Part shown: positions 3,082-21,698 of the stretch, in pieces | How the letters are laid out: each line of letters starts with the position of its first letter | How positions within the stretch are numbered: the stretch's first letter is position 1 | Origin: Chloroflexota bacterium | Lineage (GTDB): Bacteria; Chloroflexota; Anaerolineae; JACRMK01 | Reading direction: 5' to 3' | Assembly (NCBI GenBank): GCA_016200765.1 | Contig: JACQEC010000097.1 | Span: forward strand, 1-32,175 | Length of the DNA: 32,175 nucleotides | Made by a program: the position numbers and the translations under genes | The notes under the pieces: generated by a model | Database searches by the model: none | Seen by the model: only the letters and a program-made list of their open reading frames with translations | Told to the model about the DNA's origin: nothing

Positions 3082-5103
3082 TTATGCCATCCCCAGCGCC
3101 TTCAGCGCCGCCCCCAGCGGCTCCGAATAGAAGATCGGGTCCACTTTTTCCAGCAGGTCTCCCGGCACGTCCAGGAACTGCCGCTTGTTGCTCACGGGGA
3201 TGAGCACCTTTTTCGCTCCGTTATCAACCATCACTTGCAGCGGCTCGATTAGAGAGCGCAGTGGCACAATATTGCCCTGGATCGTCATGTCGCCAAGTAC
3301 GACCAGTCCGGCCAGCGTCGTCCGGTCGCGCAGTAGCGAATAGAGCGCCACGAAGAAGGCGACGCTCGCCTGCGAACCTTCTTTGGCCTGTGCGAGATCG
3401 ACGATCTGGACGTGAAAGTCTGCGCTGTCGAGCTGCCGCTCGATACCCAGCATCGCTTTATTCGCGCGTACGTAATCAAACGCCGTCATGAGCGAATCGC
3501 GCATTAACCGGTCTGGGCTGCCGCTGATGCGCAGCTTGCCGGAGCCCATCATCATGGTGACTTCGATCCGGTGCAGCGCCACCACCTGCTCATTCGTCAA
3601 TGCCGCGCCATACACGCTCCCTGCCGGCAGCGGGTCCGACGCAATCAGATCGGCGCGTCCCTGTTCCGGCACGCCAACATAGCGTTCCTGCATCGTCTCG
3701 TTGTCAATGTACGAAAAAGACGTCTGGTAATACTCGAATGCCCCCATTTTCTTGAGCTGCTCTTTGACGCGCCGCCGCCCTTCCAGCGCAATTTCCACAT
3801 ACTCGCGCAACTCTTCTTTTGGAGGATTTCCTGATGGGTGCAATAGCTTAATCAGTCCAGAGACTGTCCGGCGGACGGCCTTCGCATCCCGCGTATTCAG
3901 ATCAGTACCTAGCGCGAAGTATTGATCGAGTTGGTTAGCGTAGTTGTGACGACGCAGCTCTCGGAATGCTTCAGCCAAATAGTCCACCACGAAGCCATAG
4001 TGCTCTGTCAAGAACTCGTTGCGCATCTTGGGTATTTCCCAGCCGGGGATATAAAAATGTAGGCGGTCAATCAGCGCCATATCTTGCATGTCTTCTGGCA
4101 GAGGTTGAAACAAGTGACTGGTACGCACCAACATATCCACCGGCTGATTGATGTTGCCAGCAAAGACTACCGAGGCTTCAGCGACCAACTCCTCGCGCCC
4201 ACGACTGAAGCTGCCGCTCTCCATGTAATCCTTCAATATCTGGATGGCCGTCTTGTCGTCGAATTTGATGCCGGCCACCTCGTCAAACGCGACCACATCC
4301 CAGCGCCCGACGAGGCCGACTTGGCGCGTGCTCATGTTGTAGAACAGGTTGGCAACGGTCGTCTTGCCGCCGGATATCAGGATGGCATACGGCGAGAGGT
4401 CGCGGTAGACGTACGACTTCCCGGTGCCGCGCGGCCCGAGCTCAATCAGGTTGTAGTTACGTTGGGTCATCGGGATCAAGCGCACCAGCATCAGCAATTT
4501 GATGCGCCGGCTGAACTGTGATGGCTCTAGCCCGATGCTACGGATGAGCAGATCAATCCATTCATCGGTCGTGAAAGATGTCCGGCGCGCACAATAGTCG
4601 TCCAGACTAAACGTCGCTAGCTGAATCGGTTTGAGCGCGGTGATATAGAAGGGGCGCGCCTTGTCGTTCTCGTCGCCCTCGCCGCGGAACTCGATTTCCA
4701 CCTGGGACCAGACACCACCCTCCAGCAGCCGCTCGTATTGGCGCACGAACTGATCGGGGATGTGAACAAAGCGGTGGCTGAAATTGACCAACTCGGCCCA
4801 ATACTTGGTGCCATCGAGGCGCACCAGCACCTTGTCGATGAACGTCTGCTTACCCCGCTCCTTCGTGCGCGACTGGCCCTTCATCGCCTCGTCAGGCCGG
4901 ATGATGCTGGAGGCCAATGTGCTGTTGACAAGCCGCAGCCCAGCCTCGATCGCGATGGGATCATCTGTCGCGCAATACTTGCCCAGCAGATACTCGAGCA
5001 CATAGCCCGGCACGTTGGCGCCGACCTTGACCTCGCGCACGAGGTCTTTGCGCACCACCCGCCCTGCAAAGATGTCAACGACTTTGCGATCCAACTCTGG
5101 CAT
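3082..5103 (-). CDS. brxL: BREX Lon-like AAA+ protein BrxL
   Basis: N-terminal GRVVRKDL...NVPGYVLEYLLGKYC, Walker A ELGPRGTGKS, VAFDEVAG, KDYMESGSFSRG and a C-terminal Lon-protease-like fold. Directly downstream of pglZ. Confidence 0.95.
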   Translation of the reverse strand: MPELDRKVVDIFAGRVVRKDLVREVKVGANVPGYVLEYLLGKYCATDDPIAIEAGLRLVNSTLASSIIRPDEAMKGQSRTKERGKQTFIDKVLVRLDGTKYWAELVNFSHRFVHIPDQFVRQYERLLEGGVWSQVEIEFRGEGDENDKARPFYITALKPIQLATFSLDDYCARRTSFTTDEWIDLLIRSIGLEPSQFSRRIKLLMLVRLIPMTQRNYNLIELGPRGTGKSYVYRDLSPYAILISGGKTTVANLFYNMSTRQVGLVGRWDVVAFDEVAGIKFDDKTAIQILKDYMESGSFSRGREELVAEASVVFAGNINQPVDMLVRTSHLFQPLPEDMQDMALIDRLHFYIPGWEIPKMRNEFLTEHYGFVVDYLAEAFRELRRHNYANQLDQYFALGTDLNTRDAKAVRRTVSGLIKLLHPSGNPPKEELREYVEIALEGRRRVKEQLKKMGAFEYYQTSFSYIDNETMQERYVGVPEQGRADLIASDPLPAGSVYGAALTNEQVVALHRIEVTMMMGSGKLRISGSPDRLMRDSLMTAFDYVRANKAMLGIERQLDSADFHVQIVDLAQAKEGSQASVAFFVALYSLLRDRTTLAGLVVLGDMTIQGNIVPLRSLIEPLQVMVDNGAKKVLIPVSNKRQFLDVPGDLLEKVDPIFYSEPLGAALKALGMA

Positions 5104-5111: not shown

Positions 5112-7706
5112 CTACAAGGCAATTTCAATCGGCAGGTCGGCCCTACTGGCCAATTTTGTGCCTGTGTCCGAGTCGAGCAGGTAGAGTGCAACTTGGGCTA
5201 CTTGGGGAACCTCTGTCACCTGCAAAGTAACCGAATTGGGCATGATCCGCTGCGGGTCGGCGGGATCCGTGGCCAGGGCCACATCGCCGGTCGCTGCCTG
5301 GAAGCCGTATGCCGCCGCCACTGGCACCGAAATGACCTGGTCGCCGGCGCGCAACTCCAGGCGCACGCGCGGCGCGGACGCGAGCATTACCTGCGCTTCT
5401 GCCTGGATCGTGACCGAGAAAAAGCGCGTTGTAATTTTGGCCGCGCCGGGCACGAGTGTCCAGCTGAAGGCAGGCGCACCCGTCACGGGCGCCAGCTCGC
5501 CCGCCGCGACCGTCAGCACCGGGATGACGATTTCCTGCAGCGACAGCCCGCCGTGCGAATAGACCATCGAGCCGCCCTGCACCTTGAACCAGGCGAGACC
5601 AAACGGTGTGACCAGCTCGAGATCGCCGCTCAAGCCAAACGCGGCGACCGGCGTTCGCAGGCATCCGGGTATGGCCGAGCCACCGTTGCCCACCCACACG
5701 CGTCGATGCAGGTCGGCCGTATCGCCGCCAGGCGCGTCAATGGTCTCCGCCTCGATCAGCTTTGGCCCGAACAGGTAGCCGTGGTCAGCCGTGATGATAG
5801 CCTTTCGCACACCAACGCCAAAGAGCGAGCGCAGCCCGCGCCGCAACTGGTTGAACACATCGTCTTGCATCTGGCGCGCCAGGTTCGGGTTGTTCTCCCA
5901 GAGGCCGTCGATCTCGTCGCTGGCCGTGACGACGATCAGTCGGGCGCCAGCCAGCTTGCTCCGCAGTTGCCTGCTATTGAGTGGCGCCAGCTGGCTTAAC
6001 TCAACGACGGCCACCGTCTCCCCGACCTGCTTCTGCAGATGCTTCAGCCGCTCCTGGCTATTCTTGACGATCGTGCCGCCAATCTCGATGCCCAATTTGC
6101 CACCGCCGAGCGCAACGAGTCCGAGCCCGCGTTCGGCGCCCGGCATCAGCGCCGCCATGCCGACCGGGGTAATCGTTGGCGGGGTGGCAAGCGCCGGCGA
6201 CAGGTCAGCTTTGAAATCCACCGCCAGCAGCTCTGCGAACTCGCGCGCCATCTCGAAGCGCAGGGCATCGACCAGGATGTAGGCCATCTTGTCCTCGGCC
6301 AGCGCGGTCGCAACGAACGAACGGAAGATGTCTGTCTGGTGCGTCCCGCCGGGCAGGTCGAAGTGGACGGCCTCGTAACCGTGAATGAAGCGGTTGGCCA
6401 GCTCATCGATCACCTCGCGATAACGCTGCTGCGCCCGGGTCACGAGTTGCACCAGCCTATCGTGGATGCCGTCTTCCGGGTCAAAGCGATGGTAGTCCCG
6501 CTCCAGATGGCGATAGGCGCGATCCAACTCGCACCACGGGGCGTCTCCGCTGGTATAACGCACGTACAGTGCGTCAGCCGATAGCGTCTGCGCTTTCAGC
6601 TCGCGCGCGATCCGGTTCGCCGTTTCCAGCACAAGCCCGGCTTGAGCGATGACTTGCCAGCGCAGCTTGCTTTCAGGTTTCTGCGTGCTCCAGAAACCAT
6701 CCGCGCGCCCGCGTGCCAATTCCATCAGCAGGCCATTTCCCTTACTGCCCACTTCCGCTTCAACCAGCGCTTGCAGCGCCGTCTCTGTGCGGTAGAACGT
6801 CTCGCTCTCCTTGAGCACGTGCGGCTCCCAGGCCAAGTCGCCCAGGCCCAGCTCGGCTTCCACCCGTTGGGCCGCCTGCGCGTAACTTGCGCCCAGATCG
6901 CGGCGCTGCCGCCAGGCACGCACGACTTGAACTGCCGTCTCGCGCGCCGCCTTGCCATGGGCGTGCGCGACCGTGCTTAGCCGCTCGGGCGCAGGACCGT
7001 TCAGCAATGCGAGGAACTCTGTCGTCAGCAGGTAGCGCGCCAGCAACGTCCGGATGGCGGAGAGGACGGACTGGATCGGAATCGCAATTTCGAATGCGTT
7101 CGCGAACAGCTCCCTCAACGGCTTGATCGCGCTGCGCCCTCGGATCGTCTCGTCCAACTCCGGCTCGCTCAAGAATCGGAGCGAGATCTCCTGGACGTTG
7201 CCGGAGTTGAAGATAATGGCCAGCACACCGGCATCGCCCGCGTTCTGCTCGGCGCGTGTATCCAGGTCCGCCAGGCTCAAACTGCCGGCCTCGACCTCTG
7301 CGACAATCTTGGCGACGACCGCGGCAGGCAGCAGCGGTTCCAATGCCACGCGCGCTACAGCCGCCAGCCGCGTATTGCACTCCGGCGGCTGCTGGCCGGG
7401 CTGCATCACGACGCCGACCAAGGCGAACTCAACCAGCGCGTGGTGCGTGTCAGCCTGCGCTAGCGGCACGTAGATCACCATGCGGGGCGACTCTCCGGAT
7501 TGCGCGTTCCAGAGGGTCTCCATATCGCGCCGGAGCGCCACGAACCCGCGCTCTTTCCGGTAGACGAAGAGCGGCGCACCGCTCAACGATGCCATGCTTG
7601 AGACCGCAGCGAGGTAGGCTCCTTCCGGGTCGAACCAGACGACGGTGCGATGGGCTTCGACCTGGGTGCGGATCAGTTCAAAGAGTTTGTCGGTGACCAA
7701 CCCCAT
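5112..7706 (-). CDS. pglZ: BREX PglZ-domain phosphodiesterase/alkaline-phosphatase-family protein
   Basis: Motifs ILVDALRFEMA, PTITPVGMAALMPG, ITADHGY and HGGLSLQEIVIP, plus N-terminal VWFDP. Start set at ATG 7706 (MGLVTDK), 8 bp after the upstream stop. Confidence 0.93.
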   Translation of the reverse strand: MGLVTDKLFELIRTQVEAHRTVVWFDPEGAYLAAVSSMASLSGAPLFVYRKERGFVALRRDMETLWNAQSGESPRMVIYVPLAQADTHHALVEFALVGVVMQPGQQPPECNTRLAAVARVALEPLLPAAVVAKIVAEVEAGSLSLADLDTRAEQNAGDAGVLAIIFNSGNVQEISLRFLSEPELDETIRGRSAIKPLRELFANAFEIAIPIQSVLSAIRTLLARYLLTTEFLALLNGPAPERLSTVAHAHGKAARETAVQVVRAWRQRRDLGASYAQAAQRVEAELGLGDLAWEPHVLKESETFYRTETALQALVEAEVGSKGNGLLMELARGRADGFWSTQKPESKLRWQVIAQAGLVLETANRIARELKAQTLSADALYVRYTSGDAPWCELDRAYRHLERDYHRFDPEDGIHDRLVQLVTRAQQRYREVIDELANRFIHGYEAVHFDLPGGTHQTDIFRSFVATALAEDKMAYILVDALRFEMAREFAELLAVDFKADLSPALATPPTITPVGMAALMPGAERGLGLVALGGGKLGIEIGGTIVKNSQERLKHLQKQVGETVAVVELSQLAPLNSRQLRSKLAGARLIVVTASDEIDGLWENNPNLARQMQDDVFNQLRRGLRSLFGVGVRKAIITADHGYLFGPKLIEAETIDAPGGDTADLHRRVWVGNGGSAIPGCLRTPVAAFGLSGDLELVTPFGLAWFKVQGGSMVYSHGGLSLQEIVIPVLTVAAGELAPVTGAPAFSWTLVPGAAKITTRFFSVTIQAEAQVMLASAPRVRLELRAGDQVISVPVAAAYGFQAATGDVALATDPADPQRIMPNSVTLQVTEVPQVAQVALYLLDSDTGTKLASRADLPIEIAL

Positions 7707-7714
7707 AGGCGCCC

Positions 7715-9757
7715 CTATCCTTTGACCAGCCCTTTGGCGCGCAGTTGCTGGCTGATTGAGCTCCACGCATACTTGCCATCCAGCAGGTCGGCCCAGGCCT
7801 TCTGCGCTTCCTTCCAGGGGACCAGCTCATACAACGGCGCAATGTTTAGCAGTACGCCATCGTTCAGGTCCGGGTGGAGGTCCAGCCGCGCAATGCGGTC
7901 AATTGTTTTCTGGAATGTCTTGATTTCATCAACCAGATCAGCCTGCGCGGCCAGCGCGCGCTCCTGTGCCCTGCGCGGCGCGCCTTTCAGGTCTGCTGCC
8001 ACAGACTGCAGGTCGGAAAGCCGCTGGGCTTCAAGATTGAGCTTGGCATCCACATAATCGCGGCCCACGCGGTAGAGTGTGTCTGGGCCCAAGCGATGAT
8101 AGTAGAGCCAGATGCCATAGTTGCGGTTGCGGGATTGCAGCAGCCAGTAGATCGGCGCTTTGCGCCGGCTCTTTGAGTAGCGCTTGATGTGGAAGTCGAA
8201 GAAGTGACGGGGCTGGCGGAAGTATTCGCGCAGGGAGCCGACGCCCAGAATCTCGCAGGCTTCCTGTTCGATTGCGTCCGCCCGCTCGCGCCACAAAAGG
8301 CCGAGGACGGCCCGCACTTGCTTGACGATGTCGTCGGGGTGACGCTCATCGTCGGGCAGGATGCCGTCCCAAGCTATTTTGAGCGGATAGGCCGCATCCG
8401 GAATCGTGGCGGGCGAGTCGTCGAGCGCGGCCGCATCCGGCAGGGTGATCACATTCGGGCGCGCTTGCAACCACGCCTCACTGACGATCGTTCCCGGCTG
8501 GGCTGGCAAGCCATCTGGCCCGACGAGCATGCCTGGCGAGCAACAAGGGAGCGGCTCGAACGGACCCTGCAATTCCGGTAACAGCGACTGGTCAAGCGCG
8601 AAGCGCACGTCCCAGCGACCAAAGGCACAGCCGAGGCACCACATGAGGAAACCTTCTATCGTCGCCTGTGGGTCGTCTGAAAGTAATTCGTCGGGTTCCG
8701 TTTCGGTGTCCACCTCTTGCGCATCTTCTTCGATGCCTGTGTTTTCGACCAACCCGTTGACGTCGCTAGACTCGACGAAATCCTCTGGCGCTAGGCCATA
8801 CAATTGGGCGACTCGTTGATCTATTCGGTTCTGCACTTCCATCAGTTGTGATTGGGTTATTTCATATGCCTCTGCGCTTAGTCTGGCGCCGGATATTGGC
8901 GACTCCCGCCCCAATCGGGCGAGAACAGTCAGCGAAAACGCGTGAGTTGTCTCGTCACTTTTATCCAAGCTGCGAGTCAATTCGTAAGCGCGAAACGACT
9001 GGGTTGACAAGTCTGTAGGGTCGCCCAATGGGGGGATAGGAGTTCGTTGCAGTACACCAACTTCATATGAACCAAATGCCATCTGCAATGTAAGCAGGTG
9101 ATGCCAAATAGCTGAATTCATCAATCCAAGTAGCGCAAGCAGATCTTCGTTGTTGTCATCACTTGTAAAGACTGAAGGCCCTTTGTGACTAAAAATGGAT
9201 TTCCCAGGTAGAGCTCTTGCGCTGAATCCCTTTTGTGTCCTAAGCGGATATGTCAAGCCTTGTCGAAAATAGTACTCACTGTTTGCAATACGCCTAGACC
9301 AATGAGTAGTTCCAGGATCAAACGGATTCTGGGTCACCCATTCTTTCAATTCTTTGCCATTATTGTGCCAGTTGATAACCAACTGGATATCACTGTAGAA
9401 TTTCGAATACTCGCCTCCCTTACTGAGCGGGATCCACGAGCTTCCTAAATCGGTAGTTTTAGCTTCCCACCACAATCTGACGAATCGAAAATCATCACTC
9501 GTGGATAGACCGATTTTTACCACACGATCTTTACTTTCAAAGCGAGGATATCGCCCAAATATTGAAAGCACCCTTTTGCTAGCCCAATATGCGATTGGTG
9601 AGCCCGGGATTTGCCTGAAAGCGTCCGCTTCTATGGCAAACCTGTTAGCAACCGACCGATTAGCATTCAGCGCCTGCACCTGCGCGGCTAAGCGCTCGCC
9701 CTTGTCCTCAATCTCGGTTTTCAACAGGCGGAAGAATACGGTCGGTTCAGCGCTCAT
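7715..9757 (-). CDS. PglX-like methyltransferase #2, C-terminal half (target-recognition domain plus C-terminal region) as a separate ORF
   Basis: FRQIPGSPIAYW, GLSTSDDFRFVRLWWE, WIPLSKGGEYSKFY, YYFRQGLTY, HIKRYSKSRRKAPIYW and PDLNDGVLLNIAPL are PglX C-terminal features. No SAM-binding or NPP motif. Has its own ATG at 9757. Confidence 0.85.
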   Translation of the reverse strand: MSAEPTVFFRLLKTEIEDKGERLAAQVQALNANRSVANRFAIEADAFRQIPGSPIAYWASKRVLSIFGRYPRFESKDRVVKIGLSTSDDFRFVRLWWEAKTTDLGSSWIPLSKGGEYSKFYSDIQLVINWHNNGKELKEWVTQNPFDPGTTHWSRRIANSEYYFRQGLTYPLRTQKGFSARALPGKSIFSHKGPSVFTSDDNNEDLLALLGLMNSAIWHHLLTLQMAFGSYEVGVLQRTPIPPLGDPTDLSTQSFRAYELTRSLDKSDETTHAFSLTVLARLGRESPISGARLSAEAYEITQSQLMEVQNRIDQRVAQLYGLAPEDFVESSDVNGLVENTGIEEDAQEVDTETEPDELLSDDPQATIEGFLMWCLGCAFGRWDVRFALDQSLLPELQGPFEPLPCCSPGMLVGPDGLPAQPGTIVSEAWLQARPNVITLPDAAALDDSPATIPDAAYPLKIAWDGILPDDERHPDDIVKQVRAVLGLLWRERADAIEQEACEILGVGSLREYFRQPRHFFDFHIKRYSKSRRKAPIYWLLQSRNRNYGIWLYYHRLGPDTLYRVGRDYVDAKLNLEAQRLSDLQSVAADLKGAPRRAQERALAAQADLVDEIKTFQKTIDRIARLDLHPDLNDGVLLNIAPLYELVPWKEAQKAWADLLDGKYAWSSISQQLRAKGLVKG

Positions 9758-9797
9758 CAATTATCCATTTCAACAGGCGGTCAAGCACGTCGCACCA

Positions 9798-11777
9798 TTA
9801 CTCGTAAGCATCCTCGCGCTTCCACTGATAAGGCTCTCCCTTCGCGGCCGCCCCACCAACCTCGCGCTTTTCCAGCACGTAGGCGGCCGTCTCCACCATG
9901 GCCGTATCCAGCACGCCGTAGCCCAGGTCGGCGACGACGTGGATGTGCGTGCGCGGGATCAATAACTCCTCGCGCCAGGCGCGAAACGAGGTCAGGAAAA
10001 ATCCGGTGCGGCTGGTGATGGCGCCGAGGAGGCCGCGCTCGCGCAGCAACTCAAGCCCGCGCTCGACGAAAGCCGCATACAGATCGTTCTTGGTGCGCGG
10101 GTAGTTGGCGTCAATATACGCCTTCGACCCCTTGCTCGCCGCGCCAAAGGGTGGGTTCATCCACACGATGTCGAACGGCTCGAGCAGCAGCTCCAAGAAA
10201 GCGAAGCCGCCCTCCGCATCATTCGCAAACAGCCGCCGGCGCACCGGGTGATCCTGTTCCGCGTGCGCGGCCAGGCGCCGCAGCGCTTCGAGCGCGCCCG
10301 GTTTGAAGCGTTCCTGCCAGAACTCGTAGTCCGTGACGAACGCCAGATCCAAATCCAGCTGTTTCGCCGGCGGGACAGCCGGTTCAAAGAGCTGGGCTTG
10401 CTCGTACTGGGACAAGTTCTGCCAGGCGCGCTCGACCTGCTTCGCCTCCTGTTCAAACGTCTGCTCGATCTTCAGGAGCGAGCCGATCTCGTCGGCTTGA
10501 TGCATCGCCTGCCACATCGCGCGCACGAGGTCGCCGGTGGCGGGGTTGGCGAGCGAAGCGATAAACTCGTCCAACAAGTCGTCCTCGGCCGGCATCGGCT
10601 CGGCCACAACCAGGTTCACCCGCCGGATGATAGGCCGCTGGGCAACCTTCAGGCCCGCCTGCTGGTACGCGCGCTGAGCGCGCAACCAGAGCGCCAGCGC
10701 CCCAATCTGCGCGGCGCGGCGGTCAATCTCGATGCCATGCAGATTGTGCTCCAGAATCAGCGCGGGGATAGCGCGCCGATACTCGGCCAGCGTCGGAAAT
10801 TCTTGCTGGAGCGCCGGCCCCAGGTCGGCGTCCGCGTAGGCTTCCTCGTAGATAACCTCAAATAGGTCATAGCCGTAGAGCAGAAAATGACCACTGCCCG
10901 AGGCCGGGTCGAGTGCGCGCAGCGTGCGTGGATCGCGTTTCGGGCGCGGCGGAATCGGCTGGCCCGGCATACGCACCAGATAGCGGCAGCGCTCCGTCAA
11001 CGCGGTATCGCCTTGACGCATCTCCCACCAGAGTCGCCCGAGCGTGTTATCCACGAGGAATTCGACGACGTAGCGCGGTGTGTAGAACTGGTTGCGGAAG
11101 GCCAGCTCGTAGCTGTTGCGCGGCGCCGCGCTCTCTTTGCGCGCCTGGTCGCGTAGTTCCTTGGGCGTGAAGAACTGGTAAATCCAGCCGATGGTTTCGT
11201 CCTGGCGCCAGGTCTCGGCGAGCGCGTCTTGGTTCAACTGATCGAGCGCCTGCTGTAAGGTGGCCGTGCCCGGGAAAAGAAGCGACTGCGGCAACGAGCG
11301 ATCGAACAGCACGCCGAGCAACCGCGAGAGGTCATCGTACAACAGCTCAAGGTACATTCGGTAGCCGCCATCGGGTTGAGCGCGTATCAACTCGGGGGAG
11401 ACGAGCGCGAATTGGGTGAAGCCCTTGGAGTGCGCACCCTCGCCGATCGAGGGTTGAATCAACTGGCGCTCGGGCTGCTCCATCAGCTTGAGCGCCGCCA
11501 GCCGATTGAGCGCGGTGAACGCGCTCTCACGCACGAAACGCGCAATGGCTTCAGCCGGTTTCGCTCCCTGTGCCTGATAGTGCTTGAGGGCGTCCTCGAT
11601 GGAGCGGCGCTCGGCCCGACCGGCCGCATCGAGATGGGCCAGCCGGTCCAAAGGCTCGATCTGGCCGTCAAGGTGAACGCCATAGGTAGCCTCGAGCTGG
11701 CGCCCGAGATCTTCCTCCAGCCATCGGCGGCAGGCCGCCATAGCCAGACGCAAAGCGTTCCGCAAGGGACTATCCAT
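9798..11777 (-). CDS. PglX-like adenine DNA methyltransferase #2, N-terminal catalytic half
   Basis: QFYTPRYVV, motif I LDPASGSGHFL, LHGIEID, motif IV MNPPF and NDLYAAFVERG. Ends shortly after VETAAYVLEK with no TRD. Start ATG 11777 overlaps the HEPN stop by 8 bp. Confidence 0.88.
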   Translation of the reverse strand: MDSPLRNALRLAMAACRRWLEEDLGRQLEATYGVHLDGQIEPLDRLAHLDAAGRAERRSIEDALKHYQAQGAKPAEAIARFVRESAFTALNRLAALKLMEQPERQLIQPSIGEGAHSKGFTQFALVSPELIRAQPDGGYRMYLELLYDDLSRLLGVLFDRSLPQSLLFPGTATLQQALDQLNQDALAETWRQDETIGWIYQFFTPKELRDQARKESAAPRNSYELAFRNQFYTPRYVVEFLVDNTLGRLWWEMRQGDTALTERCRYLVRMPGQPIPPRPKRDPRTLRALDPASGSGHFLLYGYDLFEVIYEEAYADADLGPALQQEFPTLAEYRRAIPALILEHNLHGIEIDRRAAQIGALALWLRAQRAYQQAGLKVAQRPIIRRVNLVVAEPMPAEDDLLDEFIASLANPATGDLVRAMWQAMHQADEIGSLLKIEQTFEQEAKQVERAWQNLSQYEQAQLFEPAVPPAKQLDLDLAFVTDYEFWQERFKPGALEALRRLAAHAEQDHPVRRRLFANDAEGGFAFLELLLEPFDIVWMNPPFGAASKGSKAYIDANYPRTKNDLYAAFVERGLELLRERGLLGAITSRTGFFLTSFRAWREELLIPRTHIHVVADLGYGVLDTAMVETAAYVLEKREVGGAAAKGEPYQWKREDAYE

Positions 11778-12597
11778 GGGCCGCGTTCGCCTCGACTTGT
11801 GCGGCGTATGCTTTGATGCGTTCGACAACCAATTCGTCGAGCGCCAGGCAAATATGGCGTATCGTGTCAACCGACTGCTTGGCCGCCGCAAACGTAATCG
11901 CTTGCGGCTCGCCGTCCGGGTTGTCCTGCGGCCGGTCGGCTCGGTGCACGATGTCGTTGCGGCGTGTCACCGTCCGATCGAGCGTGTCCATGATCTCTCT
12001 TCTCTCGGCGTTCATCCCCAGGTGGGTAACGATTTGCTCCCACGGCTTCTCGAGCCCATGCAGCCGCCCCACTACCGCTACGCCTTTGCGCGTGCTTAGA
12101 TACTTGAAATTCGTCAGGCTCAAGATCCGGGTCGAAATATAGTCGGCGGCGCTGGCGTCTTTGATCAGCCGCAGCGTCTCATCCAGTGTGAAGGTCAGAT
12201 CCTTGAAATAGTCAACCACCGTGGGGTCGTTGGTCGGTATGAAATCGCGTCCGACCGCGCGGATGATGATCGGCAGGTTCGCCCGCAGCAGGGCCGGCAG
12301 GAACGTGTCCAGCGCCGTACACGCCATCACGATCGACTGCCGCAGCAAGTGCGCCAGCGTGGCGCGCCGCAGCGTCGAGCGCGCCATCTGCGCGCGCTCG
12401 CGCACCAGTCCCAGAAACAGCTCGTTGGTCACGACCATCAGGTCTTCTTCGCGCGTGGCGTGCACCAGCAGACGCAGGGCGCCGACCATCTCGCCTTCGG
12501 TCAAAATCTGATCGTCCGCGTCCAGCAAGCGGTAAATCTGCAAGAGCAGTTCGGCAGGCCGAATATTGTCTTCGAAGATTTGGCGCGGGTTAGACAT
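11770..12597 (-). CDS. HEPN-domain protein (putative RNase toxin; RiboL-PSP/Cthe_2314-like)
   Basis: Helical-looking 275-aa protein with LLRQSIVMACTALDTF and the RxxxxH motif RRNDIVH. Tightly coupled between brxC (4-bp gap) and pglX#2 (8-bp overlap). Confidence 0.75.
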   Translation of the reverse strand: MSNPRQIFEDNIRPAELLLQIYRLLDADDQILTEGEMVGALRLLVHATREEDLMVVTNELFLGLVRERAQMARSTLRRATLAHLLRQSIVMACTALDTFLPALLRANLPIIIRAVGRDFIPTNDPTVVDYFKDLTFTLDETLRLIKDASAADYISTRILSLTNFKYLSTRKGVAVVGRLHGLEKPWEQIVTHLGMNAERREIMDTLDRTVTRRNDIVHRADRPQDNPDGEPQAITFAAAKQSVDTIRHICLALDELVVERIKAYAAQVEANAAHG

Positions 12598-12601
12598 AGG
12601 G

Positions 12602-15600
12602 CTACTCCAGGACGATCTTGGCGCCTGATTCCAACAACTTGAGCAGGTGATCGCGCAAGCGGTTTAGCAGCTCCTCAACCTCCTGCGGCGTGCTAAGCGC
12701 CTGGTATGAACTCACGACTTCGGCCATGCGCACGCGCTTGATTTTCTGCTCCGGCTGCAAGAGCTCTTGCATGGCGTGGATAACCCGTTCCCGTAGTGCT
12801 GGCATAGCGTCGAGATCCGACTCCATCTCGGGCAGGGTCGCGCGGCAGTGACCGCAGGCCAGCGCGCCAGCCGGTAGCTCTAGTTGATCACAGGCGCGTG
12901 CTTGCAAGGGCGCGAGCAGAGGGTCTTGCATCGTCTCTGGAACCGACGCCCAGTCGGGCAGGCCTTTGACGAACTCGATGGCCCGAGTGTACGCTTCGGC
13001 GCGTGTCTGGTGACCAGCGCGATAGAGCGCTGTGTACGCGGCTTCGACGTCGCCTGCGATCGCATCGATCTGCGCCGCTTCGCGGTAGAGCGCTAGCGAC
13101 TGCAAGGTCTCGTCAAGGCTCTTCATCTGCGCTTGCAGCGTAGCATCTGCGGCCCGCTCGGCCAACACGGGCCAAAGCTGGTTGAGCGCGGTGCGCGCGC
13201 GCTGCAAGCGCCGCAGCCCGGCCGGATCGGTCGCCTTGCGAATTTCCTGCGTCTGTTGGCGCAACTGCTTAAAGGTTTCGCCCTCGCCAGCCAGAATGTT
13301 GACGACGTCATCTGATGGGCTTTGGATAATCGTGTTGAGCTGCGAGCGATACTCGGCCAGAAGATCAGCGCCCGGCAGGTCATTCGCCGCCGCTTTGGCG
13401 ATAACCTCCAGCAGGGCTTCGCGCTCGGCGGAGGCCAGCTTCTGGAACCCCTGCGCGATCGCGTTCTCGTCAACATCCACCTCTTCGCCGGTCAGCGCTT
13501 CGTAGCGCTTGGCCGCGCCGACGAGCGTCTGCAGGTCGGGGGCCTTGCGCGGAGCAAAGGATGCCGCGCGAAAGGCATTGGCGCCGGTGAAGACCGGCCG
13601 AACTTGAGGGTCCAGATGATGACGGAAGCGCCGGCCCTGGTAGGTGACTTCGATCGTGCCTTTGCGCAGTAGGCTGGCGAGCACGATCCAGACCGTCTCT
13701 GGCTCCCAGCCGTACGGTATGGCGCGGAAGTGGTCTTCGAGCATGCGCCCGGTCACCTTGTTGCCGTACGAGTGCTCGCGTTGCACATAGGCGACGATCT
13801 CTTTTGCGATCGGCGCGTTATCGTTGATGATGAATTTGCCGCGGTCCTGAATGACCAAACCCAGGCCCTCGTCGCCAGCATAGAAGACTTTGGCGAGGCC
13901 GTTCAGGTTGGCCGCCTTGAGAATCTCTTCGGCCTCATCGCCCTTGATTGGACGCGCGCCCAATTCAAGTTGTGGGTAGAGCTGGGGCATGGCAAAATCA
14001 AACAGGGCATGGAAAATCTCCGACACCATCTTGCCAAGTTGAGCGCCCTCTCGGGGCGCACCGCCCAAAAAGCCGGTGCCCCGCGCGAGCTGATCTAACA
14101 GCAGGTTTTTCAGCCGCTCTTCGTGCCGGAGCACGGCCTGCTTCTCCGCCGCCAGACTGGCGGCCTCCTCGTCCGAGTGCAGCTTGCCCTGCGCGCGCAT
14201 CTGGTCGTATTTGGCCGCCATCTGTTTGGAGCGATAAACTTCTGCTAGCAGTTCGTCAATATCGTCTGTCAGGGCAAAGACCCAAAATAGGCGCGCCGGC
14301 GCTTGCCGGCTCTCATTCTGTGTCGCTTGGCACTCGGCGGCAAAGCCAGCGGGGCTATCGCTTAGCTTCAGCTCGAGCGGAATCTGCGCTTTGTTCGAGG
14401 TAATGTTGCGGCCTTGCCAAATGACGTTCAGAGCAAACGTGCGTCGCTTGTAGAGGTGACGGCTCAACGCAGGCTCTTGGAAGATACCCGCCAGCGCCCC
14501 TTCCATGAGATCGTTGCGCTCTCTTAACGAGGGGCTAAGGCTATTGCGCTCGGTCGTCCAGGTCTTCTCCTGCGCCGTCAGCAGTTTCCAGCCGTCCTCC
14601 GTCTGCCGGATGAACTGCCGCTTTTCGAGTTGTTGGATGGCTTGCTCAACCTCGGCCAGGGGTGATTTGGCATCCACGGCGTCGTAGAGCAGGACCGCAA
14701 TGTTGCGCTCGCTGCGCGGCAGGCCGCGCGTGTACTCCATCAGGCTGATGGCTTTGGCCGTGCGCACGACCCACGGTTCGCCCGAGAATATCTCCTGGAT
14801 CTCGTTCAGGTCGCGCTGGCGCTCGGAGGGTAGATTGGTATAGAGCAGGTCGTAAATGCGATCGAGGGTGACGAGCGTCCCGATGGGCGCTTCGGCAAGC
14901 CTGGTTTGTTTACTGACCAGCATTTCGTAGGCCTGCTTGATGATGGTGCGACTGCTGCCGCCGAAATGGCGGGGCGCGCCCGGCTGGAGGCGCAAGCCCG
15001 AGACAATATCAATCGAGAGTTCGATGAAGTGCGGCAGATAGGGATAGAACTGGACGAATTCGTCCGCGTTGAGATCGAAGCGAACCTTGTCCGAGCGTTC
15101 GGCCTGGATGTGGGTGCGGAGCTGGGCCCCCGACGTTCGGTAGAGTTCACGCAGCAGCGCTTCGGCCTCGGGCTTCTTGGGGAGCACGCGCTTGGTCGCG
15201 ACCTCACGAATATCACTGGGCACCATGTCAATATGGTGACGGAAACGGTCTTGCAGTCGCGCGAGCTCTACGCGCTTATCGCGGATGGCGGCGACGACCT
15301 CGTCGAGTTTTTCCTGGGACGTGACGACAATCCAGACCGGCGCCACCGCCCGGCGCGCTTCGACGCGGTTCTTGCCCTCCTTGCCGAACTGCTCGACGAT
15401 GGCGCGCAGATTTTCGATTTTTTCGGCGCTGCGCGCGACATATTGGCCGACCTCGTCAATCACGAACATCATGGTGCGGCCGGGATAGCGGCGCGCCGCC
15501 AGCTCAAACGTCCGCTGTACCAGATAGCGGACGTTGATATCGGCGGGGTTGGTAATCGTCTGCGCCCACGACTCGGGCCGCGGGTACGTCTTGGGGTCAA

Positions 15601-16333
15601 TCTCATGCAAGGTGGCGCTGGCGCGCTGGATCTTCTGCGCGCCTTTGCGGACGCGCTGCCAGGTGCGATACGCATCGGGCGGCACTTCCTTCAGCGTGAC
15701 AGGCACCCCGGCGTCGCTTTCGCCGTCGCCCGAGACCTGGCCGCCGAAGAGCCTGGCGCACGCCTGCACGAAGGCGCCCAGCCGTCCCTCGGATTCCAAC
15801 TCGATCTCGAGCGCAGCTACGTCGTAGTCCTGTGCGTAGTCCAACTCGCGCAGGAGCACGCTGTACATGATCTCGGCCAGCGATTCGTTGGCGCGGCGCA
15901 CGGCCCGGTCAACCTGCACGTCGAACATGATGACCTGCGCGGGAATGAGTTTGTTGATGAAATCCAGATGGTTGGCGATGCCCTCGACCAGCGGGTCATG
16001 CGGCGACTGCCGGCGAAGTTGCTCGATGAACAGCGCGGCCGCCGGTTTGGCGCGCAGTGTCGGGTTGGCGACGATATATCCGAAGTTCTTGGCAAACGAC
16101 GACTTGCCGGAGCCGAAGAAGCCCGAGACCCAGACGCCCACCGCCTCGGTCGGCTCCCCTTGGCTGTCGGCGATTGCCGTGAGGAGTTCGAGGTACTGCT
16201 CTTTGATATTCTTCGTCGCGACGTACTCGACGATTTCGCCGTAGACCGTCTGCTCGTCCCGCTGGTCGAGCTTGATGACTTCCTCGATCGGTTGCGAGAG
16301 GTCACGGGCTATCAGGTCGCCAATCGTTTTCAT
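12602..16333 (-). CDS. brxC: BREX P-loop ATPase BrxC
   Basis: RDLSQPIEEVIK start, Walker A GVWVSGFFGSGKS, Walker B FVIDEVGQY, VTSQE, LQDRF, FYPYLP and PYGW. Start set at ATG 16333 (MKTIGDL) with GGAG SD 5 nt upstream. Confidence 0.95.
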   Translation of the reverse strand: MKTIGDLIARDLSQPIEEVIKLDQRDEQTVYGEIVEYVATKNIKEQYLELLTAIADSQGEPTEAVGVWVSGFFGSGKSSFAKNFGYIVANPTLRAKPAAALFIEQLRRQSPHDPLVEGIANHLDFINKLIPAQVIMFDVQVDRAVRRANESLAEIMYSVLLRELDYAQDYDVAALEIELESEGRLGAFVQACARLFGGQVSGDGESDAGVPVTLKEVPPDAYRTWQRVRKGAQKIQRASATLHEIDPKTYPRPESWAQTITNPADINVRYLVQRTFELAARRYPGRTMMFVIDEVGQYVARSAEKIENLRAIVEQFGKEGKNRVEARRAVAPVWIVVTSQEKLDEVVAAIRDKRVELARLQDRFRHHIDMVPSDIREVATKRVLPKKPEAEALLRELYRTSGAQLRTHIQAERSDKVRFDLNADEFVQFYPYLPHFIELSIDIVSGLRLQPGAPRHFGGSSRTIIKQAYEMLVSKQTRLAEAPIGTLVTLDRIYDLLYTNLPSERQRDLNEIQEIFSGEPWVVRTAKAISLMEYTRGLPRSERNIAVLLYDAVDAKSPLAEVEQAIQQLEKRQFIRQTEDGWKLLTAQEKTWTTERNSLSPSLRERNDLMEGALAGIFQEPALSRHLYKRRTFALNVIWQGRNITSNKAQIPLELKLSDSPAGFAAECQATQNESRQAPARLFWVFALTDDIDELLAEVYRSKQMAAKYDQMRAQGKLHSDEEAASLAAEKQAVLRHEERLKNLLLDQLARGTGFLGGAPREGAQLGKMVSEIFHALFDFAMPQLYPQLELGARPIKGDEAEEILKAANLNGLAKVFYAGDEGLGLVIQDRGKFIINDNAPIAKEIVAYVQREHSYGNKVTGRMLEDHFRAIPYGWEPETVWIVLASLLRKGTIEVTYQGRRFRHHLDPQVRPVFTGANAFRAASFAPRKAPDLQTLVGAAKRYEALTGEEVDVDENAIAQGFQKLASAEREALLEVIAKAAANDLPGADLLAEYRSQLNTIIQSPSDDVVNILAGEGETFKQLRQQTQEIRKATDPAGLRRLQRARTALNQLWPVLAERAADATLQAQMKSLDETLQSLALYREAAQIDAIAGDVEAAYTALYRAGHQTRAEAYTRAIEFVKGLPDWASVPETMQDPLLAPLQARACDQLELPAGALACGHCRATLPEMESDLDAMPALRERVIHAMQELLQPEQKIKRVRMAEVVSSYQALSTPQEVEELLNRLRDHLLKLLESGAKIVLE

Positions 16334-19300: not shown

Positions 19301-20328
19301 GCCGCCGGCCAGCCAATGTCGCCCGCATGCGCGAGCTCCTCGCGATACATCTCGGCGAACAGGTCGAACGCCACCAGTCCGAAGTGCATCGTCCCGCACG
19401 CGGGGTCCAACAGGGTGATTTCCTTTACAGCACGTAGCGGCTCACGGGGCATCTCACCGCCGGCTGGCACGAGGTACCGCAAGGCTGCGCCCAGGTGCGA
19501 GTCCGGGTGCATCTGCACCCACAGCCGTCCGAGCGTGTTCTCGACAATGAACCGCACGATCCAGCGTGGCGTAAACAATTGCGTCGCCGCCGGTATGTCC
19601 TCGCGTCGTATTTTCTTCTTCTGCCTGAAGAGCCGTTCGAAAACCTCTCGCTTTTCCTCTTCGCTAAAGAACTGGTACACCCACCCGATCGTCTCGTCCG
19701 CAGGCCACGCTGGAGCCAACCCGGCGGCATTTAGCAGTTCGAGCACGCCGCGCAGAGCAACCGGCCGCGGGAAGAGCCGCGAGGGCAAATCGTCGGGGTC
19801 GAACAGCACGTTCAGCTGTTGCGAAATCTGCCCGGCCTGCCAGAGCAGAAAGTGACGGTAGGCTGTGTCGGTCTGGCCGGCCTGCGCCAGCGCGTAGTCG
19901 GCGGCGTGCTCGGCGAGGTAGAACTTGAAGCCGTTGGAGTCGGCGCCGCGCCCGACTGCTTCGCGGACGAGATGGCGCGCCTCCATCATCTTGAAGGCGA
20001 CCAGCCGGTTCAAGTGCGTGAAAGCAATCTCCTTGACCAGCTTATCAACCGCCTCTCGCTTGTCAAGCCCGGCGATGACCTCGTCCGTCAGGAACTGCTT
20101 CAGGCGGTCGTAGGTCGCGCGTGTTTCCGGGTCCGCCAGCGCGGGCAGGTTGTTGGGCGGCTCGAGCGCGCCGTCCGGGTGCAGGCCGTACACGCCGACC
20201 AGCAGGTCGCGCGCCTCACACGCCAGCCGCTCGCGCGCGGCCAACGCAAAGTTGTGGATCGCGCCGCGCACCTCGTCGCCAAGGTATTGGTCCTGAAACA
20301 TGTGGGGGGCGATGGTCTGGTTCGTCAT
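16351..20328 (-). CDS. pglX: PglX-like adenine-specific DNA methyltransferase #1, full length
   Basis: PAATQLFTPRWIV, motif I LDPACGTMHFG, LFGIDID, motif IV VANPPY, DLYAAFI, TRD (QGLATADNFRFLRFWWE...WFPYMKGG...YFREGVTY), WYRKRPVYW and DDGVIVRLAPL. Confidence 0.92.
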   Translation of the reverse strand: MTNQTIAPHMFQDQYLGDEVRGAIHNFALAARERLACEARDLLVGVYGLHPDGALEPPNNLPALADPETRATYDRLKQFLTDEVIAGLDKREAVDKLVKEIAFTHLNRLVAFKMMEARHLVREAVGRGADSNGFKFYLAEHAADYALAQAGQTDTAYRHFLLWQAGQISQQLNVLFDPDDLPSRLFPRPVALRGVLELLNAAGLAPAWPADETIGWVYQFFSEEEKREVFERLFRQKKKIRREDIPAATQLFTPRWIVRFIVENTLGRLWVQMHPDSHLGAALRYLVPAGGEMPREPLRAVKEITLLDPACGTMHFGLVAFDLFAEMYREELAHAGDIGWPAAPSVLSEAEIPAAIIKHNLFGIDIDLRAVQLSALTLYLKAKSLNKAAEISDHNLACADVLTLNGTRLNAFIREMKFSRPIYERLLRALWARLEDSAQLGSLLRLESEIGALIADEEKRFEQEGRQLDLFGRAAALFEREAAQAGYWDLLAAQLVQALDAFARSHAVQGSDERYFVREAAKGLRVLNLMLRRYDCVVANPPYMSRRNMNETLADFVADAYPEAKGDLYAAFIQRCGEFAGERGRVGMITQQSFMFISSYEGLRKGLLQEFAIESMAHVGPRAFAEISGEKVNTTIFAMRREPDTSRRQASIGTYFRLVHEPDSDAKRTVFEQAVAALQAGATHRLIYRVAQSAFDAIPGSPWVYWVSDSIRALFKELPGLATVAPPRQGLATADNFRFLRFWWEVGRKMIAFGCKTTSEASNRGMRWFPYMKGGAFKRWFGNQDYVINYRRDGRELKAWAAPLYGNSGWSRIIKSVDFYFREGVTYSYLTSGTSTSRISPGGFIFDVAGSTLFPRDLALVLGVMNSSFAAYALKLINPTVNFQVGDIARVPIPAVSDRRLSGLVGLATSLAKVTSTTSELTYDFVVPLSWQTGLERVQAMRLQSKDIEAQIDEDVYQLYKIANQERIAIEAELNGAANATADETLADMDEAGGNDDDIAESLTREDLAVRWISYAVGVVLGRFRPGVAGDLGSAIYRREDFAIGSLPMPAEGEFDELVGSKDQFAYVDAQDGRHLFAANVEKALQQLAVPDGITVLDEHHPRDLTTLAGKALDLMLGADAAQEVIRLGANGDLRHFLARDFFTRWHIPWYRKRPVYWPIQSNGRRYGFVLFHERITKDTFYALQREPYLDTKRRAVELALADAEVARAAAGKQRRDIERQMGALRELAAELAEFAKALEAITSGGYEPAPNWIDDGVIVRLAPLQTVIPLWGSEPKKCWEKLKNGELDWSHIAMHYWPDRVRKACRTNKSFAIAHGLEDVYQGD

Positions 20329-21694: not shown

Positions 21695-21698
21695 CACA

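Follow-up and report, generated by a model that had tools for sequence, protein, structure and literature searches.

In type-1 BREX systems, defence depends on PglX (BrxX), which methylates an asymmetric motif of 6 bp. The solved enzymes, Salmonella PglX (8C45/8Q56) and E. coli HS BrxX (9EWZ/8ZEK), are single chains in which a helical N-terminal domain and a gamma-class N6-adenine methyltransferase (MTase) are followed by a hinge, a TRD, spacer helices and a C-terminal domain. The two genes described here, pglX2-N and pglX2-C, share this domain order, the operon position and the partners of single-chain PglX, but the division into two chains falls behind the seventh strand of the MTase core, and the sequences have diverged far from the solved proteins (identity about 21% for the C-half). 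In Type IIB/IIG enzymes such as BcgI (A and B subunits), as in pglX2, an Eco57I/MmeI-like MTase module is joined by a TRD-bearing partner. BcgI-type enzymes carry a nuclease and cut DNA, whereas the pglX2 pair has no nuclease domain and lies inside a BREX operon.

A divided PglX is known from the BREX-1 system of Brevibacterium casei, where two CDSs were read as functional by the authors; the first CDS holds the N-terminus and middle and the second the C-terminus, the split falls after the variable region, and recombinase-driven programmed inversions are involved (Milman et al., NAR 2023, PMC9881135). By contrast, pglX2 is cut before the TRD and lacks recombinase and inverted repeats. The operon also differs from the phase-variable pglX shufflon of the Lactobacillus type, which has a recombinase and inverted repeats between pglX copies: Pfam found no recombinase family among the 12 operon ORFs scanned, and no repeats longer than 28 nt were found between pglX2 and pglX1, an additional fused copy. 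Our literature search found no published account of a split before the TRD. Half-length models do exist in PADLOC (PDLC02526, 640 positions; PDLC02532, 682 positions), matched by the pglX2 halves and all labelled 'PglX'; they are detection profiles only, with no two-subunit description attached in the tool output, and their existence implies that split forms were numerous enough by 2023 to seed their own models.

Operon position and gene structure of pglX2

The window, the whole 32,175-nt Chloroflexota stretch that was analysed, carries on its minus strand (as for all features below) a BREX operon in the order brxA-brxB-brxC-(HEPN)-pglX-pglZ-brxL, which is also the order of fused and split relatives. 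The operon head (20341..22232) holds a brxE-like gene (21699-22232; NCBIfam BrxE_fam, 51.5 bits), brxA (20891-21697; Pfam BrxA) and brxB (20341-20931; Pfam BrxB). Further along lie brxC, encoding a P-loop ATPase (12602..16333; NF033441, 642.7 bits), a HEPN (RiboL-PSP) gene (11770..12597; Pfam PF18735), the two pglX2 ORFs, pglZ (5112..7706; Pfam PglZ, PADLOC PglZ and synteny), which begins 8 nt past the pglX2-C stop, and brxL, encoding a Lon-like protease (3082..5103; Pfam BrxL_ATPase, BrxL_N and Lon_C). The fused pglX1 (16351..20328; 1325 aa; NF033452, 813 bits over its full length) sits between brxB and brxC, an unusual position, and has homologues upstream of brxC in five related loci (L002, L004, L015, L016 and L026). 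The original prediction took the split gene for a 'second' PglX, an order that needs reversing: pglX2 lies at the canonical pglX site, between brxC and pglZ, and the operon also contains brxA, brxB and brxL; pglX1 is the add-on.

pglX2-N (9798..11777) runs from an ATG at 11777 to a TAA at 9800-9798 and encodes 659 aa. Its frame stays open to a TTG at 11891 in the ORF listing, which would give 697 aa; we place the start at 11777 because M1 there is invariant in 24/24 aligned homologues (alignment A2) and because the HEPN gene upstream ends in a stop that overlaps this ATG. pglX2-C (7715..9757) encodes 680 aa from an ATG at 9757 to a stop at 7717-7715, and its N-terminus reads MSAEPTVFFRLLK. As had been predicted, it opens 40 bp downstream of pglX2-N, in another frame and with its own ATG, and neither ORF contains an internal stop (659 and 680 codons open). 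The 40-nt spacer (9758..9797) has stops in all three frames and the ORF frames differ, so that no single indel or read-through event fuses the halves. Both keep all the motifs that are invariant in the family alignments.

The junction itself is atypical. The sole Shine-Dalgarno-like element in the spacer is a weak GGA, about 8 nt 5' of the pglX2-C ATG, in place of the stop/start overlap of adjacent relatives described below; no promoter-like or terminator-like site was found in its 40 nt. The pglX2-N tail, at 32 residues from the start of VETAAY, is the longest among the 120 relatives checked (10-27 in the others). The claim that the N-half stops 'just after' VETAAYVLEK was slightly generous, as 22 residues follow that motif. 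Local drift could be a source of the atypical junction.

Domain content and modelled interface

The catalytic half begins with a helical N-terminal bundle, continues into the gamma-class N6-adenine MTase core and ends in a disordered tail (residues 641-659). It matches Pfam Eco57I and MmeI_Mtase, and its AF2 model (pLDDT 80.7, pTM 0.83) has all seven canonical MTase strands, the last at 630-637. Read from the sequence, the SAM-binding motif I is DPASGSG (residues 290-296; 10890..10910) and the catalytic motif IV is NPPF (residues 541-544; 10146..10157). D290, P291, A292, G294 and S295 are invariant in 24/24 rows of alignment A2, as are N541, P542, P543 and F544 in the same alignment. These fit the xPAxGSG and NPPY/F motifs of a gamma-class PglX, and the whole MTase core, with motifs I and IV, lies in the 659-aa ORF as the original prediction stated.

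The specificity half comprises an anchor, a TRD, spacer helices and a C-terminal domain. In the AF2 model, DSSP assigns to the anchor (residues 1-50; 9608..9757) a strand at 6-9, a helix at 16-31, a strand at 39-42 and a helix at 44-49. The variable TRD (residues ~55-330; 8768..9595) aligns to the TRD region of Salmonella PglX 8c45 and has low confidence in the AF2 model. The conserved C-terminal domain of the PglX fold (residues 363-680; 7718..8671) has invariant columns in alignments A1 and A3; its YSKSRRKAP and PDLNDG motifs are invariant and its pLDDT is mostly above 85.

No Pfam family matches pglX2-C at E≤1e-3, Methylase_S (PF01420) included; an HsdS protein has two such TRDs, set apart by conserved coiled-coil regions. 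Compared with HsdM and HsdS of Type I restriction-modification, pglX2-C has one TRD instead of two, carries a large extra C-terminal domain as well as part of the MTase-domain sheet, and belongs to a system without HsdR; the stoichiometry of the pglX2 pair is likely 1:1, as opposed to the M2S1 of HsdM/HsdS. No HsdS chains appear among the listed fold matches of the pglX2 models, in which the TRD part is of low confidence. For the Salmonella PglX C-terminal domain, likeness to HsdS chains is reported by Went et al. (PMC11341690).

Profile coverage identifies the two ORFs as complementary halves, since the 1210 positions of NF033452 are covered from 6 to 615 by pglX2-N (397.9 bits) and from 636 to 1208 by pglX2-C (327.8 bits); each half fails the 500-bit cut-off set for one protein, and jointly they cover the model. 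pglX2-N also spans positions 1-637 of 640 of PDLC02526, and pglX2-C matches PDLC02532 from position 2. The predicted alignment of the break to NTTIFAMRRE / GTYFRLV of pglX1 holds.

The structure models put the break in the loop that follows the final core strand, with strand 630-637 and the disordered tail on the N-half side and strand 6-9 opening the C-half. The break thus directly follows canonical strand 7 of the MTase core and, by the solved structures, lies ~30-55 residues upstream of the PglX/BrxX hinge; the C-half therefore opens with a strand-helix-strand-helix anchor, modelled as docking on the MTase domain. This refines the clean cut at a domain boundary of the original prediction.

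A model of the complex between pglX2-N 215-659 and pglX2-C 1-360 reached an ipSAE of 0.85 (0.85, 0.85 and 0.86 in separate runs), and the best of three controls reached 0.00. As a rough guide only, own alignments having been used, the ipSAE mark is reached by 116/157 solved complexes and 2/215 mismatched pairs. Contacts agree to 84% or more between the runs, and partner pLDDT is 75 or higher. C-half residues 4-57 supply nearly all the confident contacts; within this segment, the strand at 6-12 pairs with the edge strand of the MTase sheet (N-half residues 611-622). The score may reflect memory of the solved single-chain PglX/BrxX structures (8c45, 9ewz) and speaks to likeness with that fold, not to binding of these proteins.

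The split in related loci

Searches of public data with each half recovered at least 118 standalone C-halves and 113 standalone N-halves of corresponding size. The C-half gave 727 matches at E≤1e-3 among 8000 scored candidates; among the best 120, 117 are 620-740 aa long, 118 align over 94% or more of the query, and identities run from 42 to 62%. For the N-half there were 4786 matches at E≤1e-3, and 113 of the best 120 are 600-720 aa long (56-73% identity). A length-unfiltered search of 1.84 billion cluster representatives returned 5718 matches at E≤1e-3, and the best 150 include 78 proteins of 600-800 aa without NPP[FYW] and 35 of at least 1100 aa with it. Relatives of the halves are named 'SAM-dependent methyltransferase' or 'hypothetical protein' in their source records. 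The breakpoint is shared: 30/30 aligned standalone C-halves begin 0-12 residues ahead of an F-x-R-L motif, 113/120 of the best N-half relatives terminate 10-23 residues past the start of VETAAY, and separate split lineages from five phyla are broken at the same place, as the original prediction would have it.

We compared 78 related loci. They come from the 80 top-scoring of 513 confirmed stretches, and because the query was of the split type, the share of split forms among them is biased upward. Both halves are separate ORFs with the same breakpoint in 25 loci; 7 have a complete C-half ORF and no N-half within the 0.2-2.5 kb of upstream DNA available, 32 are fused, 1 is of the fused type with an internal stop, and 13 are cut by a contig end. 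All eight tightly adjacent junctions show stop/start overlap (ATGA in 3, an 8-nt ATG/GTG...TGA/TAA overlap in 4, TGATG in 1), and by eye a GGAG-like stretch lies upstream in 7/8, L016 being the exception; the stop/start overlaps point to coupled, equimolar synthesis. Another 16 loci have longer gaps between the halves, of 0.37 kb in L028 and 0.59-7.9 kb in the remaining 15. Gene content was scanned in those 15, and 11 have Pfam-matching ORFs between the halves: NB-ARC/TPR, Ser/Thr kinase-FHA, AAA_21 with DUF4435, OLD-TOPRIM, HicB, SocA/Panacea, DUF3800, DUF6932, DUF5343 and an Hsp70-like gene. In three loci (L044, L059 and L071) an intact split pair is the sole PglX of an otherwise complete operon. 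Of the 25 split loci, no fewer than 4 carry further damage: L011 and L047 have an in-frame stop in the N-half, and the C-half is frameshifted or interrupted in L012 and L074. This shows that decay occurs in the family and weighs against a two-subunit reading.

The N-half tree (53 rows) places the window inside an all-split clade of 14 (SH-aLRT 97) and requires at least six fused/split changes overall. A C-terminal-domain tree is congruent with it, recovering the same 12-row subclade (SH-aLRT 97). The nearest relative of the window is only 73% (N-half) and 53% (C-half) identical, so dN/dS was taken from clade-mates: L003 against L009 gave 0.10 for the N-half (dS 0.40), 0.25 for the TRD and 0.17 for the C-terminal domain, and five other pairs gave 0.03-0.45. 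The two genes are kept together with a shared breakpoint, and in clade-mates both halves are under purifying selection, in favour of the two-subunit enzyme of the original prediction.

Interpretation and alternatives

Because the same split is conserved and under selection in many other bacteria, pglX2 most probably works as a two-subunit enzyme, as opposed to being a broken gene. We put the probability at roughly 85% that it represents a natural and evolutionarily stable split of type-1 BREX PglX/BrxX, with the two resulting genes transcribed together. The shared breakpoint, purifying selection in clade-mates and error-free junction favour the two-subunit claim of the original prediction; that pglX2-C is translated in this organism, that the halves form a heterodimer and that they act in methylation and defence is inferred. 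The two polypeptides would assemble at about 1:1, with the first C-half strand joining the edge strand of the MTase sheet and the first helix packing on MTase-domain helices. The assembled halves would rebuild a bilobed PglX whose TRD may read a short asymmetric motif with one methylated adenine, and the rebuilt enzyme would serve BrxB, BrxC, PglZ and BrxL in self/non-self discrimination.

It is improbable that pglX2 is instead a decaying remnant whose ORFs are open by recency or chance while the fused pglX1 does the work. The atypical junction, weak ribosome-binding site and extended N-half tail would suit such decay, as would the stops and frameshifts of some split-type relatives, and pglX1 in the same operon could render pglX2 dispensable. 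Yet both ORFs are fully open with all invariant family motifs, the split is ancestral to the whole clade, in which dN/dS is 0.1-0.25 although the clade also carries pglX1, and the spacer requires several changes from a fused gene while the flanking coding sequence is undamaged. We give slightly less credence to the idea that the halves act apart, the C-half as a DNA-recognition or scaffold subunit for pglX1 or for PglZ/BrxC and the N-half as a TRD-less methylase. The genes can lie kilobases apart, in L062 the N-half is downstream of two C-halves, and Went et al. (2024, PMC11341690) could purify the Salmonella PglX N-terminal domain alone; against this stand the stop/start overlaps, an interface modelled with the same strand addition as expected in the single-chain enzyme, and the three loci with no other PglX.

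Production of one fused protein through ribosomal frameshifting, read-through or split-intein trans-splicing is a distant prospect. The overlapping frames of adjacent relatives could in principle permit frameshifting, and 'fractured genes' joined by split inteins, with other genes in between, have reportedly been described. The window spacer, however, is closed in all three frames, and in the 16 loci with gaps of 0.37-7.9 kb, usually with genes between, a fused product by frameshifting or read-through is impossible. In the 15 gapped loci, N-halves end 2-9 residues past the last conserved strand and C-halves begin 2-6 before theirs, leaving no space for intein halves. A false break through assembly or sequencing is a negligible risk, even though the source genome is a fragmented metagenome bin (81% complete, 389 contigs). 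An error at 9757-9800 was looked for and none was found: three sequencing runs of a single study, which may themselves be the source of the assembly, each gave a separately built contig across the junction (22,806, 13,618 and 730 nt; depth ~18, 13 and 5) with 0 differences and 0 indels, and the same architecture recurs in dozens of unrelated assemblies.

A stable fission sets the specificity-bearing part on its own gene, where TRDs are swapped, the specificity gene is occasionally duplicated and accessory defence genes are inserted between the halves. Close pairs are 31-35% identical in the TRD, 76-81% in the rest of the C-half and 83% in the N-half, and the alignment and pair comparison show one variable region only. 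The 'exchangeable' subunit of the original prediction is therefore upheld in part: it is mainly the TRD within the C-half that is swapped, and the rest tracks the N-half, although two of the 78 loci have two C-half genes with differing TRDs beside one N-half. Whether fission made BREX-1 modular in a Type I-like manner, with a constant catalytic subunit and interchangeable specificity subunits held by a conserved ~50-residue anchor, is a tentative idea that we think somewhat less likely to be right than wrong. Were it true, a locus could hold several specificities, as in L062, where one N-half accompanies a pair of intact C-half genes that are 89% identical in the C-terminal domain but only 25% identical in the TRD. 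Specificity could be altered by exchange of a gene or TRD cassette with the catalytic gene untouched, the gap between halves would be a preferred landing site for accessory defence genes, and with the fused pglX1 of the window's clade at least two motifs may be marked and policed. The HEPN gene at the brxC/pglX position is kept in 23/78 loci, beside fused and split forms alike.

A PglX carried on two ORFs

At the core of BREX is PglX, which is both its methylase and its specificity factor. One minus-strand BREX operon fills the left two-thirds of the window. It comprises, in order and all on the minus strand, a brxE-like gene of the BrxE family (21699-22232), brxA (20891-21697), brxB (20341-20931), the full-length fused pglX1 between brxB and brxC (1325 aa, 16351-20328), brxC (12602-16333), a HEPN RiboL-PSP gene between brxC and pglX (11770-12597), pglX2, pglZ (5112-7706) and brxL (3082-5103). 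pglX2 consists of a 659-aa catalytic ORF (pglX2-N, the N-half), running from an ATG at 11777 that the stop of the HEPN gene overlaps to a TAA at 9800-9798, and a 680-aa recognition ORF (pglX2-C, the C-half), running from an ATG at 9757 to 7715. The ATG at 11777 is the best start for the N-half and is invariant in 24/24 homologues. The two ORFs lie in different frames and are separated by a 40-nt spacer stopped in all three frames. On the 1210-position NCBIfam PglX model, positions 6-615 fall to the N-half and 636-1208 to the C-half. The original prediction, which had seen a PglX broken into these two ORFs, was right in every material point.

Each half scores below the NCBIfam cut-off and no Pfam family matches the C-half, so that the pair is annotated as a generic methyltransferase and a hypothetical protein; split loci may in this way be taken for broken BREX systems. 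Half-length PADLOC ‘PglX’ profiles fit both ORFs end to end, and PglX/BrxX chains were the only convincing matches in fold searches. A promoter and terminator scan of 7600-12700 found the spacer empty, with total counts close to the shuffled expectation. Within its own genome, copies of the C-half were found only at the pglX2 locus and in pglX1. A C-half match was present in 4/40 related genomes, three of these being fused-looking open frames of 1257-1379 aa with 31-47% identity and the fourth an 84-aa fragment.

The junction was also considered as a possible assembly error. The window makes up an entire contig from a metagenome bin of 81% completeness, and across 9300-10300 it shows 0 differences and 0 indels from contigs assembled independently for each of three runs in one groundwater study (22.8 kb at a depth of ~18, 13.6 kb at ~13 and 730 nt at ~5), with a fourth run covering part of the stretch. 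Because the three runs may be the source samples, this agreement excludes an assembler error but not a strain-level oddity. The question of an artefact is in any case irrelevant given the comparative data on split relatives.

The window locus has no clean fit to the classical BREX subtype scheme. The operon starts with a BrxE-family gene but is otherwise type 1-like, with BrxL present; for PglZ, the BREX-6 model is the top NCBIfam match, at a score far under its cut-off. HEPN (RiboL-PSP) homologues are found at the equivalent position in 23 of 78 related loci from other genomes, beside fused and split pglX alike. pglX1 is nearer than the split pair to the solved enterobacterial enzymes, matching 8c45 with 350 bits as compared with 115 and 130 bits for the two halves. 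Homologues of pglX1 lie upstream of brxC in five loci (L002, L004, L015, L016 and L026), indicating that this Chloroflexota clade conserves a BREX architecture with two PglX genes.

A breakpoint shared among relatives

The split is common to many relatives, widely. A C-half search limited to proteins of 374-1190 aa returned 727 matches at E<=1e-3; of the top 120, all but three have lengths of 620-740 aa (117), and in 118 the alignment spans 94% or more of the query (identity 42-62%). All 30 aligned C-halves start within 0-12 residues of a conserved F-x-R-L strand. The N-half search gave 4786 matches, and among the best 120 of these, 113 are 600-720 aa long (identity 56-73%) and 113 end 10-23 residues past the start of the VETAAY strand. 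The tail of the window N-half, at 32 residues from the VETAAY start, is the longest among the relatives checked. When the C-half was searched without a length filter against 1.84 billion cluster representatives, 5718 matches were found, of which the best 150 comprise 78 resembling standalone C-halves (600-800 aa, lacking NPP[FYW]), 35 fused proteins (at least 1100 aa, with NPP[FYW]), 13 below 1100 aa that have the motif, 15 proteins under 600 aa and 9 longer ones without the motif. The same breakpoint thus recurs in standalone N- and C-halves, the outcome that the original prediction had proposed looking for. One relative, P0026 (838 aa), matches ~45% of the C-half query and also the DUF559/Vsr-like endonuclease families PF04480 and PF18741, and is possibly a variant in which the PglX C-terminal domain is fused to a nuclease.

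Scanning a single genome per species gave 513 confirmed stretches, the best 80 of which yielded the 78 loci, a sample biased toward the query's own kind. Both halves are present as separate ORFs in 25 of them, and 7 more have a complete C-half ORF with no N-half in the short available upstream DNA; 32 are fused, one is of fused type with an internal stop (L039), and a contig end truncates 13. In the fused loci, pglX sits in an ordinary brxA-brxB-brxC-(HEPN)-pglX-pglZ-brxL operon, which makes the split gene the canonical pglX of the subfamily and pglX1 the addition.

In all eight loci with directly adjoining halves, the stop codon of one ORF overlaps the start codon of the next, as ATGA (L012, L016, L026), as an 8-nt overlap (L003, L004, L006, L020) or as TGATG (L014), and by eye a GGAG-like stretch lies upstream in seven of the eight, L016 being the exception. 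Junctions of this kind usually signal translational coupling. In 16 further loci, a gap of 0.37-7.9 kb separates the halves (0.37 kb in L028, 0.59-7.9 kb in the other 15), and Pfam-matched ORFs lie between them in 11 of the 15 scanned loci with gaps of 0.59-7.9 kb. No single polypeptide can be made in those loci. The families found there are NB-ARC/TPR NTPases, Ser/Thr kinase-FHA, AAA_21 with DUF4435, OLD-TOPRIM nuclease, HicB, SocA/Panacea, DUF3800, DUF6932, DUF5343 and Hsp70-like, and the gap between the two genes acts as though it were a cargo slot for defence genes. Gaps with accessory genes, PLD also being among them, were seen in L001, L005, L008, L009, L011, L013, L022, L044, L059, L060, L062 and L071. 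In L044, L059 and L071, an intact split pair is the sole PglX of a complete operon.

We placed these forms on an N-half tree of 53 rows, rooted with pglX1 as the outgroup and leaving out L061 and loci with incomplete N-halves. The window belongs to a clade of 14 members, all split and mainly from Chloroflexota (SH-aLRT 97), and split forms also occur near the base of the tree and inside otherwise fused Planctomycetota and Bacillota clades, requiring at least six changes between fused and split. Separate split lineages have the same breakpoint, their N-halves ending 2-9 residues past the last strand and their C-halves beginning 2-6 residues ahead of theirs. When the tree is built from the C-terminal domain, the same 12-row subclade reappears (SH-aLRT 97), which indicates that the two genes are inherited together. 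The window copy is too distant from its relatives for dN/dS, which was therefore computed from clade-mates. For the least saturated pair, L003 and L009, dN/dS is 0.10 in the N-half (dS 0.40), 0.18 in the anchor (the first ~50 residues of the C-half), 0.25 in the target-recognition domain (TRD) and 0.17 in the C-terminal domain, low values in both of the halves for which the comparison had originally been suggested. Five other pairs gave 0.03-0.45; L008-L016 was uncomputable in three of the four regions, and the L001-L002 N-half was saturated (dS 3.5).

Probable assembly of the halves and exchange of specificity

pglX2 is a fission variant of BREX-1 PglX, and we predict, with a probability of about 0.85, that the pair forms a functional two-subunit PglX. 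The original prediction had drawn the parallel with HsdM/HsdS; the pair would work in an M+S-like manner, yet it lies outside those families. An AF2 model of the N-half (pLDDT 80.7, pTM 0.83) has seven strands (288-290, 346-350, 388-391, 535-540, 578-589, 610-619 and 630-637) and a disordered tail at 641-659. The C-half model (pLDDT 72.9) opens with a strand (6-9), a helix (16-31), a strand (39-42) and a helix (44-49), after which come the TRD, modeled with low confidence, and a confidently modeled C-terminal domain. Mapped via pglX1, the cut falls between strands ~602-608 and 618-623 of the solved enzymes. This is ahead of the hinges given in the available portions of two reports, residues 654-659 in Salmonella PglX (PMC11341690) and loops 638-675 in E. 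coli BrxX (bioRxiv 2024.04.12.589305), so the break is where the canonical MTase core ends rather than at the hinge. In the models, the C-half retains a piece that is structurally part of the MTase lobe.

A complex of N-half residues 215-659 with C-half residues 1-360, modeled in three runs with three controls, scored an ipSAE of 0.85 (0.85, 0.85 and 0.86; best control 0.00), although this may be a memory of intrachain contacts, as single-chain PglX/BrxX structures have been solved. The ipSAE mark is reached by 116/157 solved complexes and 2/215 mismatched pairs and is approximate here, our own alignments having been used. At least 84% of contacts are common to the runs and partner pLDDT is at least 75. 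Almost all confident contacts come from C-half residues 4-57, with the strand at 6-12 packed against N-half 611-622 and the helix at 16-33 against 234-240, 265-276 and 591-607. As modeled, the halves can rebuild the known PglX fold; actual binding is beyond the model's reach.

The split could instead be local decay of pglX2 in the window. Its 40-nt spacer, weak ribosome-binding motif and long N-half tail are all atypical, pglX1 could cover the loss of pglX2, and at least four split loci elsewhere carry extra damage. In-frame stops or frameshifts in the pglX halves, or in brxA, pglZ or brxL, affect L011, L012, L039, L042, L047 and L074, which may be decaying systems or low-quality assemblies; broken copies, too, occur in the family. 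Set beside the recurrent breakpoint and the low dN/dS among clade-mates, we consider local decay improbable, and the other alternatives together share what little is left. Joining of the halves by recoding or an intein was rejected, as the spacer is stopped in three frames and the halves of other lineages end and start tight to their strands.

Given a two-subunit PglX, the C-half had been proposed to be an exchangeable specificity subunit. Two loci, each with two complete C-half genes of differing TRDs, support this. In L062 (7534-9801 and 11354-13408), where the N-half lies downstream of both, the C-terminal domains are 89% and the TRDs 25% identical; in L022 (6324-8384 and 9989-12070), the values are 75% and 50%. 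More commonly, though, it is the TRD cassette that is exchanged. In L001/L002 and L008/L016, the N-halves are 83% identical and the C-terminal domains of the C-half 76-81%, with TRDs at 31-35%, a pattern that amounts to replacement of the TRD within an otherwise co-evolving gene. A shufflon was rejected: no recombinase family was found among the 12 operon ORFs scanned, and no repeat longer than 28 nt links pglX1 to pglX2.

Relation to described systems and neighboring genes

The nearest described case is the BREX-1 PglX of Brevibacterium casei, which the available part of its report describes as split after the variable region and tied to programmed inversions (PMC9881135); both its cut point and its logic are unlike those of pglX2. 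A split at the pglX2 boundary is undescribed in the portions of the BREX/PglX literature searched, including PMC7002104 and PMC7513527, and the words ‘split’ and ‘fission’ are absent from the main text of a 2026 survey of BREX diversity (PMC12839542). [quoted passage not shown] Went et al., in the available sections, liken the PglX C-terminal domain to the S subunits of Type I systems and could not express this domain of the single-chain Salmonella protein by itself (PMC11341690); by comparison, the C-halves are natural standalone proteins and ready material for biochemistry. A natural two-piece PglX shows a cut tolerated by selection, one that follows the seven-strand MTase core and leaves the recognition half with a small anchor. 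It also points to the exchange of one gene as a possible easy way to retarget BREX.

Upstream of the BREX operon is a mobile-element module (23805-31044, minus strand) with a RadC-like JAB, two TrwB/coupling-protein-like ATPases, an ArdC-N anti-restriction domain and Replic_Relax. The defence island may ride on, or adjoin, a conjugative or mobilisable element. At the other end of the window, a 706-aa McrB-like AAA_5 GTPase (133-2253, minus strand) has a long N-terminal region that fits PADLOC PDC-S02 models; L068 has a 50% identical homologue downstream of its BREX operon, and an McrC partner would lie past the contig end. Finally, a 227-aa ORF (2293-2976, minus strand) lacks any Pfam, NCBIfam or PADLOC match and has homologues with 39-44% identity between pglX and pglZ in L036 and L038. 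It contains a GQDP stretch, which may resemble uracil-DNA glycosylase motifs.
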